48,030 nt of DNA from Desulfobaccales bacterium (GTDB lineage Bacteria; Desulfobacterota; Desulfobaccia; Desulfobaccales; 0-14-0-80-60-11). The translations under genes were made by a program, and so were the position numbers. The DNA lies in assembly GCA_041740935.1 (NCBI GenBank), contig JBGSLA010000091.1:1-48030 (forward strand), given 5' to 3'. Positions 1,555 through 40,079 of this stretch are shown here, one piece after another. The notes beneath the pieces are model-generated. The model had not been told where the DNA came from. It was given only the letters and a program-made list of their open reading frames with translations, and made no database searches. Each line of letters starts with the position of its first letter. The stretch's first letter is position 1.

Positions 1555-2110
1555 CGGTTACAGAAAGCTTTCGCAGACACCGCCCACTCAAACCTGGTGG
1601 CACAGGTTTTCAACCTGTGCCCTTGCACAGGCGAGACGCCTGTGCTACTAATCTCGAGTTTGTGGTTTTTTGACAAAGATTTTGCTTGCAACATGTTAAT
1701 CTTATTAAGAAATCATTCAATTTTATCAGTCTGGTTCCGGCCTTTAGGCCGGGATGTGCCACCAGGCTTTTCATGGTTTGGTAAATACCGGGGCTCATGA
1801 GTAACTGTCCTGAAAAGTTTTTGTGTGGGGGAAGGGGGTTCCCACGGGCAGGATGCCCGTGCCGGGATCGCAGACCCCTGCCCCCTGCCCCGCACCCCCT
1901 CTCCCAACCCCGTGATTCGGGAGCACAGGCAAGATGCCTGCGCTCCCGGGTCATTCCTCTCACGTAGGACCGCAATTCATTGCGCCCACCAAGGGTTCGA
2001 TGAATCGAACCCCTGCATGGTGTTGGGAGGGGAGCCTGGGGGGAAGGGCTGGGGAGCCACCGCTCCTCCGGCTCTCCCCCCAGAGATAAGAAATAACCAG
2101 GCTCATGAGA
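1555..2110 (+). mobile_element. Tandem CTG-cassette repeat locus with REP-like cargo (junction 1768-1820)
   Basis: TTTTCATG...GGCTCATGA-GTAACTG-TCCTGAAAAGT junction; second GGCTCATGAG at 2101; outer boundaries are degenerate and approximate. Confidence 0.6.
1596..1767 (+). repeat. ~170-bp dispersed repeat, copy 1 (copy 2 at 37662-37834)
   Basis: Near-identical direct repeat including ATCTCGAGTTTGTGG...CAAAGATTTTGCTTGCAACATGTTAATCTTATTAAGAAATCATTCAATTTT...GGTTCCGGCCTTTAGGCCGGGATGTGC. Confidence 0.95.
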
Positions 2111-4707: not shown

Positions 4708-6129
4708 ATGATCAACATAAAATTCGGCACCTCCGGCTGGCGGGGGATTCTGGCGGAGGATTTCACCTTTGCCAATGCCCGTCTGGTCTGCCAGGCCATT
4801 GCCGACTATCTCAAGCAGGAAGGCCTGGCCGACAAAGGGGTGATCGTGGCCTATGACACCCGCTTTCTGTCGGAGACCTTTGCGGCCACCGCGGCGGAAG
4901 TCATGGCCGGCAACGGCATCCCGGCCTTTTACACCATCCGGGACACCCCCACTCCGGTGGTGAGCTTTGCCATCCGGAAGGCCCTGCGGGGCGGCGGCAT
5001 CAACATCACCGCCAGCCACAACCCGGCGGAGTGGAATGGCATAAAATTTTCTCCCGCCCAGGGGGGCCCCGCTCCCACCCCGGTTACGGCCGCCATCGAG
5101 GGGTTCATCCGGGAAATATCCCCGGCCGACGTCAAAAGCATCCCTTTTGCCGAAGCCCGGGACCGGGGTCTGGTCGCCGATATTGATCCCCGGGGGAGCT
5201 ATTTCGATCATCTGCGCAAGCTGGTGGACGTCAAAACCCTGGGGCAGTCCGGCCTCAAAGTGGCGGTGGACGTCATGTTCGGCACCGGCCGGGATTACCT
5301 CGACGCCTTTCTCCGGGAGGCCGGGGTGGAGGTCGAGGTGCTGCATGGCTACCGGGACCCCCTGTTCGGGGGGCAGCGCCCCGAGCCCAGCGGCGAGTAT
5401 CTGAACCCCCTGGCCGAGCGCATCCGGGAAACCGGGGCGCATCTCGGTCTGGCGGTGGACGCCGACGCCGACCGCTTCGGGGTCATGGACGGCCAGGGCC
5501 GCTACCATGAAGCCAACATGATCCTGGGGTTGTTGTTCGACCATCTCATCAAGACCCGGGGCTGGGAAGGCGGCGTGGCCCGCAGCGTGGCCACCAGCCA
5601 TCTGGTGGACAAAGTGGCCGCGGCCTACGGGCGGCCTGTGTTTGAGACCAAAGTGGGCTTCAAGTTCCTGGGCGAGTACATCCTCTCTGAACAGGCCCTG
5701 ATGGTTGGGGAAGAAAGCGAAGGCTTTTCCATGCGGGGGCACCTGCCGGAAAAGGACGGCATCCTGGCCTGCCTGCTGGTGGCCGAGATGGTGGCCAAAA
5801 CCGGGAAGGGCATCCCGGCGCTCCTGGACGACCTGTTTGCCCGGGTGGGGCCGGTGCACACCCAGCGCCTCAACCTGAGCCTGACCCCCGAAGTCAAGGT
5901 GCGCCTGTTGGAGCGTCTGCAGACCACTCCCGACCGGTTTGCCGGCCTCAAGGTGGTGGGGCACGTCACCATTGACGGCCACAAGTATCTCCTGGAAAAC
6001 GGCAGTTGGGTGTGCTTCCGGCCCTCGGGCACCGAGCCTGTGGTGCGCTTTTATCTGGAGGCCTCCACCGAGGCAGAACTGGAGAAGCTGCGCCTGGCCG
6101 GCGGCGCCCTGTTGAGGGAATTATTGTAG
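4708..6129 (+). CDS. Phosphoglucomutase/phosphomannomutase family protein
   Basis: FGTSGWRG, TASHNP catalytic Ser, DADADR metal loop, GEES, RPSGTEP. Confidence 0.95.
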   Translation: MINIKFGTSGWRGILAEDFTFANARLVCQAIADYLKQEGLADKGVIVAYDTRFLSETFAATAAEVMAGNGIPAFYTIRDTPTPVVSFAIRKALRGGGINITASHNPAEWNGIKFSPAQGGPAPTPVTAAIEGFIREISPADVKSIPFAEARDRGLVADIDPRGSYFDHLRKLVDVKTLGQSGLKVAVDVMFGTGRDYLDAFLREAGVEVEVLHGYRDPLFGGQRPEPSGEYLNPLAERIRETGAHLGLAVDADADRFGVMDGQGRYHEANMILGLLFDHLIKTRGWEGGVARSVATSHLVDKVAAAYGRPVFETKVGFKFLGEYILSEQALMVGEESEGFSMRGHLPEKDGILACLLVAEMVAKTGKGIPALLDDLFARVGPVHTQRLNLSLTPEVKVRLLERLQTTPDRFAGLKVVGHVTIDGHKYLLENGSWVCFRPSGTEPVVRFYLEASTEAELEKLRLAGGALLRELL

Positions 6130-8714: not shown

Positions 8715-8729
8715 GGCTGGTTTTTTTGA

Positions 8730-8946
8730 CTGTCCTGAAAAGGTTCCTCTTATTCTGGTTCCCAAGCTCCGCTTGGGAACCCACTTGCCCGCCAAGCTCT
8801 GCTTGGCCCCGCCTTGCCAGCCCCCAATAAAGGGGGTTGGGAGGGGGGCCTGGGGGTGGGGGGTGGGGGAGCCACTTCCCCTTAGCCCTCCCCCCAGAAG
8901 GACTTTTCATGCTTTGCGGGTGGGCCAAAGGCCCATGAGGAGCTGT
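8730..8946 (+). mobile_element. Single CTG-cassette with palindromic cargo
   Basis: CTG-TCCTGAAAAGG left end; cargo GGTTCCCAAGCTCCGCTTGGGAACC plus a G/C-run palindrome; right end TTTTCATGCTTTGCGGGTGGGCCAAAGGCCCATGA-GGAG-CTG. Confidence 0.7.
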
Positions 8947-8969
8947 TGCTGTCAATTTAAAGGCGGACC

Positions 8970-14754: not shown

Positions 14755-15189
14755 CTGTCTTGAAAAGTCCCCCGTAGGGCGCGTCTTACGCGCCGCAAAA
14801 TGGTGCGTGAGACGCACCCTACAGAGCTTTGACGCCAATCAGACGATGTTTGGCGGCGGGCAGTGCCCGCCCTACGCGAGTTTTCATGCTTTGCGGGTGA
14901 GCCGTAGGCTCATGAGAAACTGTGATGAAAAGTTTTTTTTGTGGGCGAGGGGGTTCCCACGGGCTGGAAGCCCGTGCTACCGGGGTTGGGAGGCCTTTGC
15001 AGCTTTCCCCACGCCCCCTTCCCCACCCCCTGAACCGGGAGCACTGGCTTTGTGCCTGTGCGGCACAGGCAAGATGCCTGTGGTCCCGGTTTAAAAACAA
15101 GGTCCGGGGGGCCAGCACCACTCCCCCGGCCCTCCCCCCAGATCTCTTTTTCATGCTTTGCGGGTGAGTCGGAGGCCCATGAAGACCTG
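14755..15189 (+). mobile_element. Two tandem CTG-cassettes with different REP cargo (junction 14881-14932)
   Basis: CTG-TCTTGAAAAGT [GTAG REPs] TTTTCATGCTTTGCGGGTGAGCCGTAGGCTCATGA-GAAA-CTG-TGATGAAAAGT [cargo] TTTTCATGCTTTGCGGGTGAGTCGGAGGCCCATGA-AGAC-CTG. Confidence 0.8.
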
Positions 15190-17478: not shown

Positions 17479-17571
17479 TCACTTCGGCAGCCCCGCTACC
17501 CTGGCCCGCAGGCTGTAGGTCGGAAACTTTGCGTCCTACCCTTTCGGCGTAGTTTGCCTTTGTCGGTGACC
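17479..17571 (-). ncRNA. Cyclic di-GMP-I (GEMM-I) riboswitch
   Basis: Minus strand GGUCACCGACAAAGGCAAACUAC-GCCGAAAGG-GUAGGACGCAAAGUUUCCGACCUAC...GGUAGCGGGGCUGCCGAAGUGA matches the GGCAAAC/GAAA/GACGCAAAG/GGGGYURCCGA consensus. Confidence 0.95.
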
Positions 17572-26375: not shown

Positions 26376-26600
26376 GTTGTTTTTAAAAAATTCCTCAGGC
26401 GGCTATATTTTGGTAGGGTGGCTGTCCCCGGCCGCCCAGGGTTCCGGCGGGCACGGAGGCCCGCCCCACCCCGATTTTTCACGGTTTTGGTCGACCCAAG
26501 GGCTCATGAGCGGCTGTCCTGTTATGAAAAGTTTTTCGTAGGGTGCGTCTTACGCACCAATTAATCAGGAAAAGCGGCGGGCGGTGCCCGCCCTACATAT
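26376..26600 (+). mobile_element. CTG-cassette locus with REP cargo (junction 26476-26533)
   Basis: TTTTCACGG...GGCTCATGA-GCGG-CTG-TCCTG-TTATGAAAAGT, flanked by GTAGGG REPs matching those at 14774-14876. Confidence 0.7.
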
Positions 26601-33094: not shown

Positions 33095-33134
33095 AAGCGG
33101 CTGGCGTTCGGAGAACAATTTTCTGCTTCGAGAA

Positions 33135-33172
33135 GTTCAAAGTTCAAGGTTTAAGGTTCAAAGTTTAAGGTT
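33135..33172. repeat. Heptamer tandem repeat (GTTYAAR x5)
   Basis: GTTCAAA GTTCAAG GTTTAAG GTTCAAA GTTTAAG. Confidence 0.85.
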
Positions 33173-33192
33173 AACACATTGATTCAAACAAC

Positions 33193-33369
33193 TTTTCCTA
33201 ATTTATGGGTGATCGTTAGCTCATGAATGACTGCCTGGAAAAGTTCTCCTGGGCACCGCCCACCAACCACCCGGTGGCACAGGTTTGCAACCTGTGCCTG
33301 CACAGGCTCGACGCCTGGGCCACCGGGGTTTTCCTGTGTTTGAAAGAGCCTGGGCCTCAGGAGCGACTG
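33193..33369 (+). mobile_element. Degenerate CTG-cassette with GGTGGCACAGG REP cargo
   Basis: TTTTCC...GCTCATGA-ATGA-CTG-CCTGGAAAAGT [cargo] TTTTCCTG...GGCCTCAGGA-GCGA-CTG. Confidence 0.65.
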
Positions 33370-35340: not shown

Positions 35341-35596
35341 GCCTGCTCTTTCCGGGGCGAGTTGCTCGGGGAAAAGGAGCAAAAAACGTTTTCGGTTTTC
35401 ACTTTTCGATAAAAATAATTAATAAAATCAAATCAATACGCGTTTTTCTGATTGCATTTCAAGGTAAAAATCGCCTCAGACGGGAAGGTTCCCCATCTCC
35501 AGGTTTTTTTCCAGTCGGCTTGGGGGAATTCTACCGGAAATCAAGGGGAAAAGGACAGGGTTTTTGTGTGAGGGGTGTGAAATAGGCAGGTAATTT

Positions 35597-35710
35597 ATTG
35601 TGAAAATTTTTTATGTAGAACCGCCGCCCGCGGCGGTTTGTTCGCCGGCGAGGGCGCCGGCGCCACATTTTTTATGCCTCATTGGTGGGCCGAAGGCCTA
35701 TGCGGAACTG
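35597..35710 (+). mobile_element. Degenerate CTG-cassette with GTAGAACCGCCG REP cargo
   Basis: Cargo nearly the same as the reverse complement of 40007-40060; right end TTTTATGC...GTGGGCCGAAGGCCTATGC-GGAA-CTG. Confidence 0.65.
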
Positions 35711-37446: not shown

Positions 37447-37890
37447 CCCCTGAAAAGGGTTGGGAGGAGGGGGCTGGCGAGAGGGGGTGAGGCTGCCATT
37501 TTGGTTCCGAATCTCCCGCTGGGGGATTGCTTGGCTCCGAATCCGGCAGATAATAGCGGGGGCGGAGCCCGCCCACGGCTTATGGGTGTATTGATAGGCG
37601 GCCCGTGGCCGCCGGCATCAGCGTGCACGGCACGCCCTATAATTCCGCCCTCCCACCACCCGGTGGCACAGGTTTGCAACCTCTCGCCACGCACAGGCGG
37701 GACGCCTGTGCTACTGAATCTCGAGTTTGTGGTTTTCTGACAAAGATTTTGCTTGCAACATGTTAATCTTATTAAGAAATCATTCAATTTTTTCAGTTTG
37801 GTTCCGGCCTTTAGGCCGGGATGTGCAACCAGGCCTCTTCCTGGTTTTGAGAGAGCCGGGGGCTCATGAGCGTCTATTCTTTAAAGTTCG
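37447..37890 (+). mobile_element. CTG-cassette locus carrying copy 2 of the ~170-bp repeat
   Basis: CCCTGAAAAGG left end, REP cargo, right end TTCCTGG...GGCTCATGA-GCGT-CTA; boundaries approximate. Confidence 0.6.
37662..37834 (+). repeat. ~170-bp dispersed repeat, copy 2
   Basis: Near-identical to 1596-1767. Confidence 0.95.
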
Positions 37891-38056: not shown

Positions 38057-39745
38057 TCATTCCTTGCATGACTGTTCCGCGGCCAATTGCTGGCGCACCT
38101 CCACCACCTGGCGGGCCGCCAGGTCCACTGCGGCCAGGTCGGTCCAGGGGCTGAGGATGAAGGATTTCAGCGCAGAGATGGGCGGGCCTGCCTCACCATC
38201 GTATTCGGCGTGGCGGTAGGCGTTGGTCCAGGACAACAGCACCCCCTGCCCCGCCATAGCCCGGTCGTGCACCCGCCGGAAGATGCGCCGGTTGTAATCG
38301 TTGTGGGCTTCGAGTTCCTCCCGGTAGGCGGGGTCGCTCACCTCCCGCTGAAAAGCCTCCTTGGCCGTCACCCCCTCGGGATACACCCGGAACAGGGTCA
38401 CGGGCCCGTAATTAAAATCGTTCAGCACCTCGATGCAGGGGTAGGCCTCCAGGCGCTCCCTGAGCATGGCGGCCATTTCCACCACATGGCCGATCAGGAC
38501 CCTAAAGCCCTGCTTGCCGAACAGGCGCATGTTGGCCAGAGCCGCCAGGGCGCCGCCCCCGGGCCGGGAGCACTCCAGGGTGTAGATGCCGGGGCGGTAC
38601 TGGCCGAACTGGTAGAGATAGGGCATCTCCTCGGGGTGCCGGGACAGGAGGGTCAGGTCCTGGCGCTCCTTGACCAGAAAGGTGCTGGAGATATACGGGG
38701 TGTAGCCGGTTTTGTGGAAGTCCACCCCCAGGGAATCGGCCCGCCCCAGGTGGGCCAGGCGTTTGACCGAGTCCTGCAGGGACCGCACGGTGCGGGCGTG
38801 AAAGCCCAGGGGGTTGGCCTCGAAGTCGTAGTCCCGGAATACCGACCAGATCCAGCCGATGACCGCGTCAGCGTGGATATGCGGCGGGGGCACCTGAAAT
38901 TCCTGGACAAGTTCCTCCCGCAGGCGCACGATGCCCGCCAAATCGTCGATGCCGAAGGCGTCGGTGGTCCCCTGGGTGGCGATGATCACCGCCACCTTCT
39001 CCCCGGCTGCATAGGCCCGGCGCAGATAGTCCTCCAGGTCGGTGAGGTCCATCTCGTTGTCCCGGGTGGTGGGGATGGCCACGAGGTTTCTGGTGCCCAG
39101 CCCCAGCCAGCCGGCGGCGTTTAAGCGGGCATAGTGGGAAGATTCGGAGGCCACCACCTTCAGGTCCTCCCTGAGCCCTTCGGTCATGCCCCGCCCCCCC
39201 AGATATTTTTCCAGGCCCAGTTTTACGCCGTAAAAGATGGTGCCGGTGCCGCTGAAAGTGAAGACCCCGCCGGCCCGCTGGGGGTCATAGCCCACCAGGT
39301 CGGCGAGCATGGCCACCGCCTGGATTTCCGCTTCGGCGAAGCGGGCGGCGTATTCGTCCCAGATGATGTTGGGATTGAGCAGGGCCGCAGCCATCACCGC
39401 AGTAATGCTGGGGATGGAGGCCGAGGGGATGACGTTCACCTGGGAATTGGGGTGGCCCCACACCGGCATGCCCCGGCAATAATCCACCAGCTCGGCGGTG
39501 ACCTCCTCCACGGACTGCATCTCTTCCGGAAAGCCCTCTTCCAGGTCCTGCTGATAGCGTCCCGGCCGGCCGCGCCCCAACACCGGCGCGGCGGATTTCA
39601 GATCGTCCACCCGGTCCAGAAAGCGGGACAGGGTGTGGACAAAATAGCCGTCCATGACAGGGTTGGAGATGGGGTGGGGGAAGCTGTTTTTCAACTGCTC
39701 CAGGATTTCCGAAAAGTGCAGCCGCTCCTGAAAATTACCGGGCAT
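38057..39745 (-). CDS. Group II PLP-dependent decarboxylase
   Basis: SHY, GTTDAFGIDD, HADA, SLGVDFHK (PLP lysine), TLECSR. Confidence 0.92.
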   Translation of the reverse strand: MPGNFQERLHFSEILEQLKNSFPHPISNPVMDGYFVHTLSRFLDRVDDLKSAAPVLGRGRPGRYQQDLEEGFPEEMQSVEEVTAELVDYCRGMPVWGHPNSQVNVIPSASIPSITAVMAAALLNPNIIWDEYAARFAEAEIQAVAMLADLVGYDPQRAGGVFTFSGTGTIFYGVKLGLEKYLGGRGMTEGLREDLKVVASESSHYARLNAAGWLGLGTRNLVAIPTTRDNEMDLTDLEDYLRRAYAAGEKVAVIIATQGTTDAFGIDDLAGIVRLREELVQEFQVPPPHIHADAVIGWIWSVFRDYDFEANPLGFHARTVRSLQDSVKRLAHLGRADSLGVDFHKTGYTPYISSTFLVKERQDLTLLSRHPEEMPYLYQFGQYRPGIYTLECSRPGGGALAALANMRLFGKQGFRVLIGHVVEMAAMLRERLEAYPCIEVLNDFNYGPVTLFRVYPEGVTAKEAFQREVSDPAYREELEAHNDYNRRIFRRVHDRAMAGQGVLLSWTNAYRHAEYDGEAGPPISALKSFILSPWTDLAAVDLAARQVVEVRQQLAAEQSCKE

Positions 39746-39828: not shown

Positions 39829-40079
39829 CCAGTCTCTCATGAGCCTCTGGTTTTCTTAAAAATATGAAAAGCCCGGCGGCACAGGTGTCCTCACCTGTGC
39901 AGGCACAGGTTGAAAACCTGTGCCACCGGCGTAAGGAGTGCTGAGAGCCTCAAACTTTTCATAACAGTTGCTCATGAACCTTCGGCTCACCCGTAAATCA
40001 TGAAAAATGTGGCGCCGGCGCCTCGCCGGCGCAAGAACCGCCGAGGGCGGCGGTTCTACACCAACACTTTTTAGGACAG
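39829..40079 (-). mobile_element. Two tandem CTG-cassettes, minus strand (junction 39954-40006)
   Basis: Minus strand CTG-TCCTAAAAAGT [cargo] TTTTCATGATTTACGGGTGAGCCGAAGGTTCATGA-GCAA-CTG-TTATGAAAAGT [cargo] TTTTCATA...GGCTCATGA-GAGA-CTG. Confidence 0.8.

Follow-up and report, generated by a model that had tools for sequence, protein, structure and literature searches.

Dispersed non-coding REP cassettes with one asymmetric pair of ends and shared CTG edges in the Desulfobaccales

Mosaic repeats assembled from repetitive extragenic palindromes (REPs) are known from Escherichia coli as bacterial interspersed mosaic elements (BIMEs) and from Pseudomonas as REPINs, and the spread of REPs and BIMEs is still called poorly understood in one account (PMC8266576). 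In E. coli, the REP-associated tyrosine transposase (RAYT) TnpA-REP is described as cutting within linkers at C^T and next to iREPs at CC^T, as in TGCC^TGAT/A (PMC3333891; here and below, a caret marks a cut or boundary). The neisserial intergenic mosaic element (NIME) arrays consist of repeat sequences (RS) bounded on both sides by dRS3, a 20-bp ATTCCC-N8-GGGAAT inverted repeat; they differ in content between strains, the conserved dRS3 is thought to be a recombinase site, and the arrays had, by the distribution that this source gives, not been seen outside Neisseria at that time (PMC1797815). Here we describe a repeat element of comparable build in a 48,030-nucleotide stretch of DNA (the window) that forms contig JBGSLA010000091.1 (C91) of the Desulfobaccales bacterium assembly GCA_041740935.1 (G000; 3.66 Mb, 60% G+C, 275 contigs). 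In most genomes, the edges of a mobile REP unit are fuzzy. This genome, of the sulfate-reducer type, holds hundreds of small non-coding cassettes with sharp C^TG edges and fixed adaptors, together with at least four REP types that have RAYT genes in the same genome. What has spread is the whole unit of left end, cargo and right end, which now stands at some 200 intergenic sites and persists across two families of one order. The reading we favour, tentatively, is that these are composite REP cassettes of the BIME/NIME kind, moved by RAYT single-strand cut-and-paste at the conserved C^TG. They are new in having one asymmetric adaptor pair, common to many REP families of different RAYTs and kept over an order.

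The initial annotation of the window, made from its letters alone, had proposed a recurrent CTG-bounded cassette that stacks in tandem. The array at positions 14755-15189 consists of two such units.

14755-14757, forward strand: CTG flanking the two-unit array at its left edge, read directly from the sequence
14758-14922, forward strand: unit 1, with left end TCTTGAAAAGT, REP cargo of the GTAGGGCGCGTCTTACGCGCC type plus GGCGGGCAGTGCCCGCC, and right end at 14881-14922, the last bases of which are CTG
14923-15189, forward strand: unit 2, with left end TGATGAAAAGT, composite cargo (CCCACGGGCTGGAAGCCCGTG type and others), and right end at 15148-15189

Read through, the array comprises CTG and TCTTGAAAAGT, 108 nt of palindromes, CTTTTCATGCTTTGCGGGTGAGCCGTAGGCTCATGAGAAACTG abutting TGATGAAAAGT, 210 nt of other palindromes and TTTTCATGCTTTGCGGGTGAGTCGGAGGCCCATGAAGACCTG, followed by unique DNA. 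The CTG at 14920-14922 both terminates unit 1 and opens the left motif of unit 2, exactly as had been claimed for abutting units. The cargo family of unit 1 occurs at seven loci and its REP type flanks the RAYT gene on contig C157, while the cargo of unit 2 is present also in relatives without the right-end motif.

Genome-wide, the 13-nt left end, CTG^TYHTGAAAAG (CTGTYHTGAAAAG), has 221 exact copies against none in shuffles. The right end is 42 nt long (TTTTCAT..TGRGCC-N3-GGCYCA..CTG) and has the consensus TTTTCATGCTTTRCGGGTGRGCC-N3-GGCYCATGAGSARCTG, followed by TYMTGAAAAGTT in most copies; 199 copies were found at three or fewer substitutions and 218-233 at looser settings, with none in the shuffled genome. 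A pattern that also admits a second variant, TTTTCCTGGTTTTGAGAGAGCC-N3-GGCTCATGAGCGACTG, gave 324 copies genome-wide, 27 of them inside predicted genes. The right adaptor opens with the complement of the left adaptor (CTTTTCA) and bears a small GGTG-tagged hairpin, 8-10 nt after which stands the CTG. The two ends are thus unequal, 13 nt against 42 nt, in agreement with the asymmetry first noted. A left end lies within 1500 nt upstream of 186 of the 233 right ends, and the resulting units fall into sharp length classes (92, 108-110, 127-128 and ~133 nt) that correspond to discrete cargo families with identical ends, the families measuring 76-133 nt and more. Seen from the other side, 134 of the 221 exact left ends have a right end no more than 450 nt downstream, 76 directly follow a right end (a set that may overlap with the 134), and 48 have neither neighbour; the 45 of these that were inspected all open recognisable cargo. 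No left end stands alone.

It is the whole unit, rather than the 54-nt junction between abutting units, that has been copied, because array ends and copies chosen by their cargo show the left end with unique DNA upstream. An R1-type right end is absent upstream of the left end in 149 of 174 units (about 14 of these 149 carry a variant right end, recognised by eye and uncounted by the script). At these 149 array starts, conservation begins with the CTG (C in 128, T in 118, G in 136) and only a weak T-run precedes it. Likewise, 79 family A copies picked by cargo alone retain the left end at 72-90% per position from the CTG on, and the DNA further upstream is unique. Units lie in 201 arrays. The right boundary is less sharp than the left: among 205 right ends finishing in CTG, a left end comes next in 125 and unique DNA in 71, and this unique DNA is still TYMTGAAAA-like (0.49-0.83 per position, against 0.11-0.52 after random CTGs), a likeness that fades after position +9. 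The triplets to the right of a unit's two CTGs are equal in 25 of 114 units, with 24.2 expected; as they are uncorrelated, there is no target duplication beyond the CTG, and a longer left/right duplication was rejected. A miniature inverted-repeat element of a DDE transposon was rejected on the same count and on the inequality of the ends. The left-end triplet was also discarded as a marker of cargo family, since TCC and TTA occur in every family. Copies share a mean pairwise identity of 82%, and pairs at 97% or above number 0 of 861 in family A and 3 of 406 in family B; conservation exceeds 90% in the left core, REP stems and right core, and is 40-70% in the spacers. No cargo-less 'empty backbone' was found in the host assembly. 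The only cargo-less unit seen, 61 nt long, lies within an array of another metagenome-assembled genome (MAG; L168, minus strand, ~5622-5683) and consists of left end, AAAA and right end.

What the initial annotation had called unrelated palindromes are palindrome families that are interchangeable between identical ends, as stated, but their identity as REPs and the presence of cognate RAYTs had been missed. Families A, B, E, G and H carry GTAG/GTGG plus a hairpin, and families A and B comprise 79 and 81 copies. Four open reading frames (ORFs) of the assembly, on C157, C242, C247 and C120, have weak Pfam Y1_Tnp matches; all four exceed the cut-off of the NCBIfam RAYT model NF047646 (90.8-190.7 bits, cut-off 80), and one matches E. 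coli TnpA-REP (PDB 4ER8, E 6e-51). Each of the four genes is flanked, as in a REPtron, by palindromes, of the types GGTGGCACAGGTG.., GTAGGGTGCGT.., GTGGAACCGCCG.. and GGTGGCACAGGC.., and the same REP types serve as cargo in the units, those of the window among them. REPs and conserved non-REP linkers are combined into mosaic units and tandem arrays, as in BIMEs. Since the cargo consists of REPs with cognate RAYTs, the element belongs within the REP/BIME world, and an HUH enzyme becomes an alternative mobiliser. Among relatives, we recognised a RAYT ORF in 17 of 20 regions fetched for RAYT-like genes of four junction-rich genomes; inspection by eye found REP-type palindromes in the flanks of 13 and saw none in four (L111, L121, L124 and L127), and the junction hairpin flanked none of the 17. 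Cargo also exists outside units: genome G002 has no junctions and yet contains 98% matches to cargo.

Two cargo families consist of a 7-nt sequence, GTCCARR or GTTCAAR, repeated in tandem in 3-6 copies at many loci of the assembly (in the window, 33137-33175). These heptamer arrays resemble iteron-type protein-binding arrays in appearance, and an inverse array, (GGTTTTC)n, often stands just upstream of a left end. A composite of heptamers, TTTATTCGGTTCCGAAAAGTT and family B occurs about 15 times with no right end in between.

Like the E. coli BIMEs and REPtrons and the Pseudomonas REPINs as these are described (PMC3333891, PMC3116915, PMC2817692), the cassettes consist of high-copy, intergenic, GC-rich palindromes with a 5′ GTAG/GTGG-type tag, in which inverse REP pairs are joined to conserved extra-REP motifs; single-copy RAYT genes are flanked by their own REPs, tandem arrays vary among relatives, and C^T stands at unit edges, as at TnpA-REP cut sites. 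They depart from BIMEs in that one asymmetric adaptor pair (12 nt; 42 nt with its own hairpin) is common to many unrelated REP families of different RAYTs, and in that these adaptors are kept across 14 genera or more; the linkers of BIMEs mostly vary and are specific to a species. The units, moreover, have sharp and constant CTG edges and are stacked head to tail in one orientation. With NIMEs they share a short conserved element that separates interchangeable repeat families (more than 100, of 50-150 bp, in the Neisseria description; PMC1797815) in variable arrays. The junction differs from dRS3 in form, being 54 nt long, asymmetric and split into unequal halves at array ends; its cargo is REPs with RAYTs, and phage make no use of the site, judging from the lack of IMG/VR matches with two patterns. 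PLSDB likewise returned no plasmid match. Rfam at the gathering threshold gave no match to the element, and literature searches, the scope of which was papers without their supplementary files, found none that describes it, in keeping with the earlier remark that it is not a named family.

The right end was found in 23 of 41 related genomes, which belong to 14 of 19 genera and to two families of a single order, at 0-163 copies per genome, with no match for a reversed-pattern control across the 41. In a species-level MAG collection, at least 104 stretches matched, of which 80 were listed. Among the matches listed, MAG labels were Deltaproteobacteria, Desulfobaccales, Desulfobacca, Desulfobacterales, Proteobacteria, Syntrophobacterales and Thermodesulfobacteriota, plus one Gemmatimonadales, and loci of other species followed the same grammar with other cargo, for instance a 94-nt unit with a single GTAGGGGCGGTTCGCGAACCGCCCCTAC palindrome. 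The MAG labelled 'uncultured Gemmatimonadales' has the junction on at least six contigs (L153, L155, L167, L178, L213, L220, L221), which points less to transfer than to a Desulfobaccales genome that was mislabelled or mis-binned. Adaptors that stay nearly unchanged over two families while cargo turns over point to a conserved recognition step.

Individual loci are polymorphic. The spacer at 8715-8969 is 255 nt long with the one unit that it holds; four congeners have 35, 69, 68 and 88 nt there, and three more have other insertions. The two spacers on either side of the decarboxylase gene at 38057-39745, filled with repeats here, are short and repeat-free in metagenome relatives (84-88% protein identity), and the orthologous spacer of two such relatives, L048 and L025, lacks the stretch of ~620 nt that lies at the 37447-37890 locus. 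In a strain ~94% identical, 365 nt replaces 133 nt (35569-35701) on one bridging contig; public contigs are mostly broken at repeats, where joints between repeat copies are uninformative, and this bridging contig is the informative one. The comparison of empty and filled sites proposed in the initial annotation therefore yields spacers of different size, but not a base-by-base alignment, as congeners are ~77% identical in flanking genes; the metagenome relatives at 84-88% protein identity were likewise too distant for one.

A search for large copies enclosing a recombinase, HUH or IS110 gene, also proposed there, found none in the host assembly, and the supposed non-autonomy of the element was borne out. 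The eight left-to-right pairs of 450-6000 nt in this genome enclose ordinary genes or two separate arrays, without a recombinase or transposase. The 80 listed loci of other MAGs contain two large cases, one an IS110 insertion and the other a stretch of ordinary genes, and across both sets no unit longer than 450 nt holds a Y1 gene. With nothing autonomous inside any unit, movement in trans is the only mobile option. Junction copy number rises with the count of Y1-transposase matches over the 41 genomes (Spearman 0.66, with kin that are not independent), and a Y1-transposase gene is present in 12 of 12 genomes with at least four junctions, compared with 20 of 29 others; repeat-rich genomes may, however, simply hold more of everything, which limits this correlation.

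We favour the RAYT reading because the cargo consists of RAYT substrates, because RAYT number tracks the element, and because TnpA-REP cuts C^T and CC^T beside REPs. The left-end contexts AAC^TG and GTCC^TGAA can be likened, by sequence, to the E. coli cut sites. On this model, each unit would carry a REP or REP pair as the binding site of a RAYT (TnpA-REP, Y1 HUH), placed between the 12-nt left adaptor TYMTGAAAAGTT and the 42-nt right adaptor. By analogy with E. coli TnpA-REP, a RAYT that binds either the REP cargo or the right-end hairpin would cut single-stranded DNA at C^TG on both sides, and the released piece would be pasted at another C^TG that precedes a left-end-like sequence. An existing left end would be a perfect target, giving tandem stacks with one common CTG; a single kind of cut site, C^TG plus left-end-like sequence, could in this way explain the common CTG, the left-end-like right flanks and the stacking. 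If only the REP is specific to an enzyme and all units have the same cut site and adaptors, one set of ends could be used by several RAYT paralogues, and cargo would be interchangeable as a consequence. Like IS200/IS605 elements and the PATEs, which derive from them and lack genes, the cassettes have no terminal inverted repeats, no target duplication and insertion beside a fixed short sequence, and as in the end geometry of IS608 a subterminal hairpin would be followed after ~8-10 nt by the right cut, with the left cut ~20 nt before the first hairpin. PATEs have related subterminal hairpins at both ends and full-length relatives with tnpA (Y1); in the cassettes the two hairpins are unrelated, the left one being a cargo REP, of which there are many kinds, and the right one staying constant, and there is no full-length tnpA copy. 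The cassettes would offer a defined substrate for in vitro RAYT excision and insertion tests, including whether RAYT paralogues use one cut site, and could help to show how the mosaic repeats known from E. coli and Neisseria spread.

Several points weigh against this reading. That the cargo is REP leads only by inference to RAYT cuts at CTG, and that RAYT paralogues have one cut-site preference in common is an assumption; the long conserved right adaptor is unaccounted for by known RAYT biology. The copies are old, and no cleavage, circle or fresh insertion was seen. No cognate RAYT was found in this assembly for the large cargo families A, E and I, and family D consists of heptamer arrays only, with no REP. 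Several relatives have RAYTs yet hardly any junctions (RAYT matches against junctions: G001, 7 and 2; G004, 6 and 2; G031, 10 and 1). The strand of the units shows no bias relative to GC skew (130 of 277; the skew is weak here), although an IS200/IS605-like lagging-strand mechanism might leave one.

The explanation put forward in the initial annotation, that the junction is a core-type site of a tyrosine recombinase, appears unlikely to us but is a serious rival. The site would be used as duplex or as folded single strand, in the manner of attC or CTX phage, by a conserved host enzyme such as XerCD. Here, a left arm GGCYCATGA, a 7-bp spacer GSAACTG and a right arm TYMTGAAAAGT would let circular cassettes integrate next to earlier ones and at left-end-like secondary sites. 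The 54-nt junction, right end plus left end, indeed has the arms TCATGA-N7-TYATGA in its consensus, and an unchanging enzyme and site would explain a near-identical junction in 14 genera. The right flanks of terminal units resemble the right arm as well, whereas the left flank of arrays is CTG with a weak T-run and bears no left-arm likeness. As for the resemblance to dif, we located a candidate with a dif consensus and then searched the 41 genomes: the clade dif, GTCTGATAA-TATATA-TTATGTAAACT, has pattern matches, almost letter-identical, in 39 (a single one in 36 of the 39, two in G015, G016 and G028; five listed matches depart from it), and in the host assembly it is GTCTGATAATATATATTATGTAAACT at C37:9387-9412, in a very short spacer between two genes. 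The second match in G016 differs in the last letter only and could mark an integrated Xer-dependent element; in G015 and G028 the second match is a poor one. Set against the arms of dif, left ends of the TTA variant share 9 of 11 positions with the XerD arm, and GGCTCATGA shares 6 of 9 with the XerC arm, around a 7-bp centre, a likeness that by our own expectation probably exceeds chance. The claimed arm likeness applies to the TTA form and is partial: dif-like TTA occurs in about a third of left ends and TCC in about half, and no unit lies within 700 nt of dif, whereas known Xer-exploiting elements integrate there.

In the single-strand fold proposed for the junction, the outer stem would be the right arm and the inner hairpin the left arm. 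The junction can fold in this way, though weakly, at -7.2 kcal/mol (z -1.7), which 11 of 200 shuffles equal, and a second value, -5.9, is equalled by 12 of 200, so that the fold is not better than shuffles at the usual threshold; an entire unit, cargo included, far surpasses its shuffles in fold stability (z -5.8). One pair of the inner hairpin TGRGCC/GGCYCA covaries, with GC in 85, AT in 45, AC in 24 and GT in 18 of 182 copies in the assembly, and none of 1000 shuffles was paired as well. In a set of 37 copies, of which 33 come from other MAGs (21 by record name), the pair is GC in 20 and AU in 13, a count that 10 of 500 shuffles reach. This covariation of one pair may equally reflect two old subfamilies. 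Integron attC sites have core sites RYYYAAC...GTTRRRY with crossover at G^TT, and Acinetobacter pdif sites alternate in orientation. As in attC, pdif and Xer-exploiting systems such as CTX phage, a cassette takes its first bases from the previous recombination site, modules are bounded by recombinase sites, and an imperfect palindrome has two boxes around an unpaired centre, with partial dif-arm likeness. The junction consensus CTG^TYM, on the other hand, lacks GTTRRRY, there are no integrase/attI platform and no cassette ORFs, junctions are all direct, unlike pdif, and the units are dispersed over ~200 sites rather than gathered in one array or at dif. That no accessory gene follows the element in its distribution is what a host enzyme would lead one to expect. 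Tyrosine recombinases of the assembly are XerD, an XerC-like protein, phage-type integrases and an IntI/XerA-like protein below family cut-offs (best IntI match 218.8 bits, cut-off 265); this sole IntI-like gene adjoins an IS91-type Y2 transposase gene on C62, a contig with no junction, and was rejected as mobiliser, because the 7 of 41 genomes that have it do so irrespective of how many junctions they hold. It forms part of an IS91-like element (C62:111-2216; IntI/XerA-like recombinase of 295 aa, then Y2 HUH transposase of 406 aa) that has seven copies in the congener G007 and is patchily distributed elsewhere. The XerD equivalog (C106:21672-22979; 386.6 bits, 435-aa frame) has ~140 extra N-terminal residues, through a wrong start or as a real extension. 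With the dif likeness partial, no unit at dif and the fold no better than shuffles, the claim of a tyrosine recombinase acting on the junction is not upheld. If such an enzyme were responsible, this would be the first dispersed, non-coding cassette system of that kind. A bolder form, in which the junction is a true attC/dif-like recombination site of a conserved Desulfobaccales host enzyme, and the whole a gene-less 'integron without integron' that captures, stacks and reshuffles the REPs of several RAYTs, seems doubtful; if true, it would be a class of non-autonomous site-specific element not described before.

It is also rather improbable, in our view, that the units are not mobile at all and that the adaptors are structural or protein-binding linkers of REP clusters, like L, S, l and r of BIMEs or dRS3, with arrays changing and spreading by homologous recombination, gene conversion and slippage under selection on nucleoid organisation or recombination hot spots. 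The copies are old, without near-identical pairs, functional-looking parts are conserved while spacers drift, and no mobiliser was identified; array content differs among relatives at one locus, as described for NIME arrays (PMC1797815). Homologous recombination cannot, however, seed ~170 separate unique sites with sharp CTG edges. Orientation and context, scored with genes from a rough ORF caller, also count against it: in tandem contexts, 63 units are co-oriented and 61 anti-oriented with flanking genes, and units do not avoid divergent spacers with their promoter regions (49 of 247; genome-wide, 18% of spacers are divergent), while convergent ones are mildly enriched (74 of 247, against 22%). 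The lack of orientation bias and of divergent avoidance argues against a strand-specific RNA role and leaves a DNA-binding role unaffected.

Very unlikely, finally, are non-autonomous partners of an IS110-family (bridge-RNA) or other element, with the CT of CTG as the common donor/target core and recognition of the ends in trans. A Desulfobacca-labelled MAG has an IS110-family gene (L160:3181-4687, 421-aa frame) exactly between a left and a right end, the host assembly has one complete IS110-family gene (NF033542, 201.6 bits) and a partial one, and insertion sequences are known to target REPs, as one source reports (PMC1525189). The L160 gene, which adjoins a fragment of another IS110 gene, reads better as an insertion sequence that entered a unit, and it is one case in 69 units of other species (among the matches listed), with none in the host assembly. 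The junction-rich genomes G009, G015, G016 and G017 (13-41 copies) have no IS110 match while G002 has nine and no junction, and IS110 genes were rejected as trackers, their domain counts being unrelated to junction number across genomes. A bridge RNA needs far less than 54 conserved nucleotides, a length that the junction shows. The 3′ end of the partial IS110 gene on C143 recurs on C1, where a family A unit is joined to it by its left end, and IS110 elements may target these units.

In the window as a whole, the right-end pattern matches four times against none in 100 shuffles, and the left pattern 13 times against a shuffle mean of 1.72 (largest 6). The other loci named in the initial annotation are as follows.

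8730-8945, forward strand: one clean unit, which takes up the spacer that separates a histidine kinase gene from a response regulator gene
39965-40079, reverse strand: family B unit, cargo GTAGAACCGCCGCCCTCGGCGGTTC..GCGCCGGCG.., right end 40006-39965; its REP type flanks the RAYT gene on C247
39830-39967, reverse strand: second unit, sharing the CTG at 39967-39965, with a GGTGGCACAGG-type REP pair and a degenerate right end at 39871-39830
35597-35710, forward strand: family B unit with degenerate left end; right end 35669-35710 with seven mismatches
33123-33369, forward strand: two degenerate units, heptamer-array cargo and then a GGTGGCACAGG REP pair, with a common CTG at 33231-33233
26376-26600, forward strand: family E-type unit with variant right end 26475-26516, then a left end at 26519-26532 and REP cargo, lacking a right end
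37447-37890, forward strand: long REP mosaic, terminating in a variant right end at 37835-37876 and a degenerate left-end-like TTCTTTAAAGTT
1555-2110, forward strand: mosaic with a degenerate right end at ~1767-1807 and a left end at 1805-1818, starting without a left motif

The GGTGGCACAGG-type REP flanks the RAYT genes on C242 and C120. All eight loci said to share one grammar carry it, cleanly at 8730-8945 and at 39830-40079 (reverse strand); at 35597-35710, 33123-33369 and 26376-26600 the ends are degenerate or variant, and 1555-2110 and 37447-37890 are better described as mosaics in which some ends are recognisable. The sole Rfam match in the window lies apart from these loci and is a c-di-GMP-I riboswitch aptamer (RF01051, 69.5 bits) at 17483-17568 on the reverse strand, between Tad/Flp pilus-type genes and the next operon.

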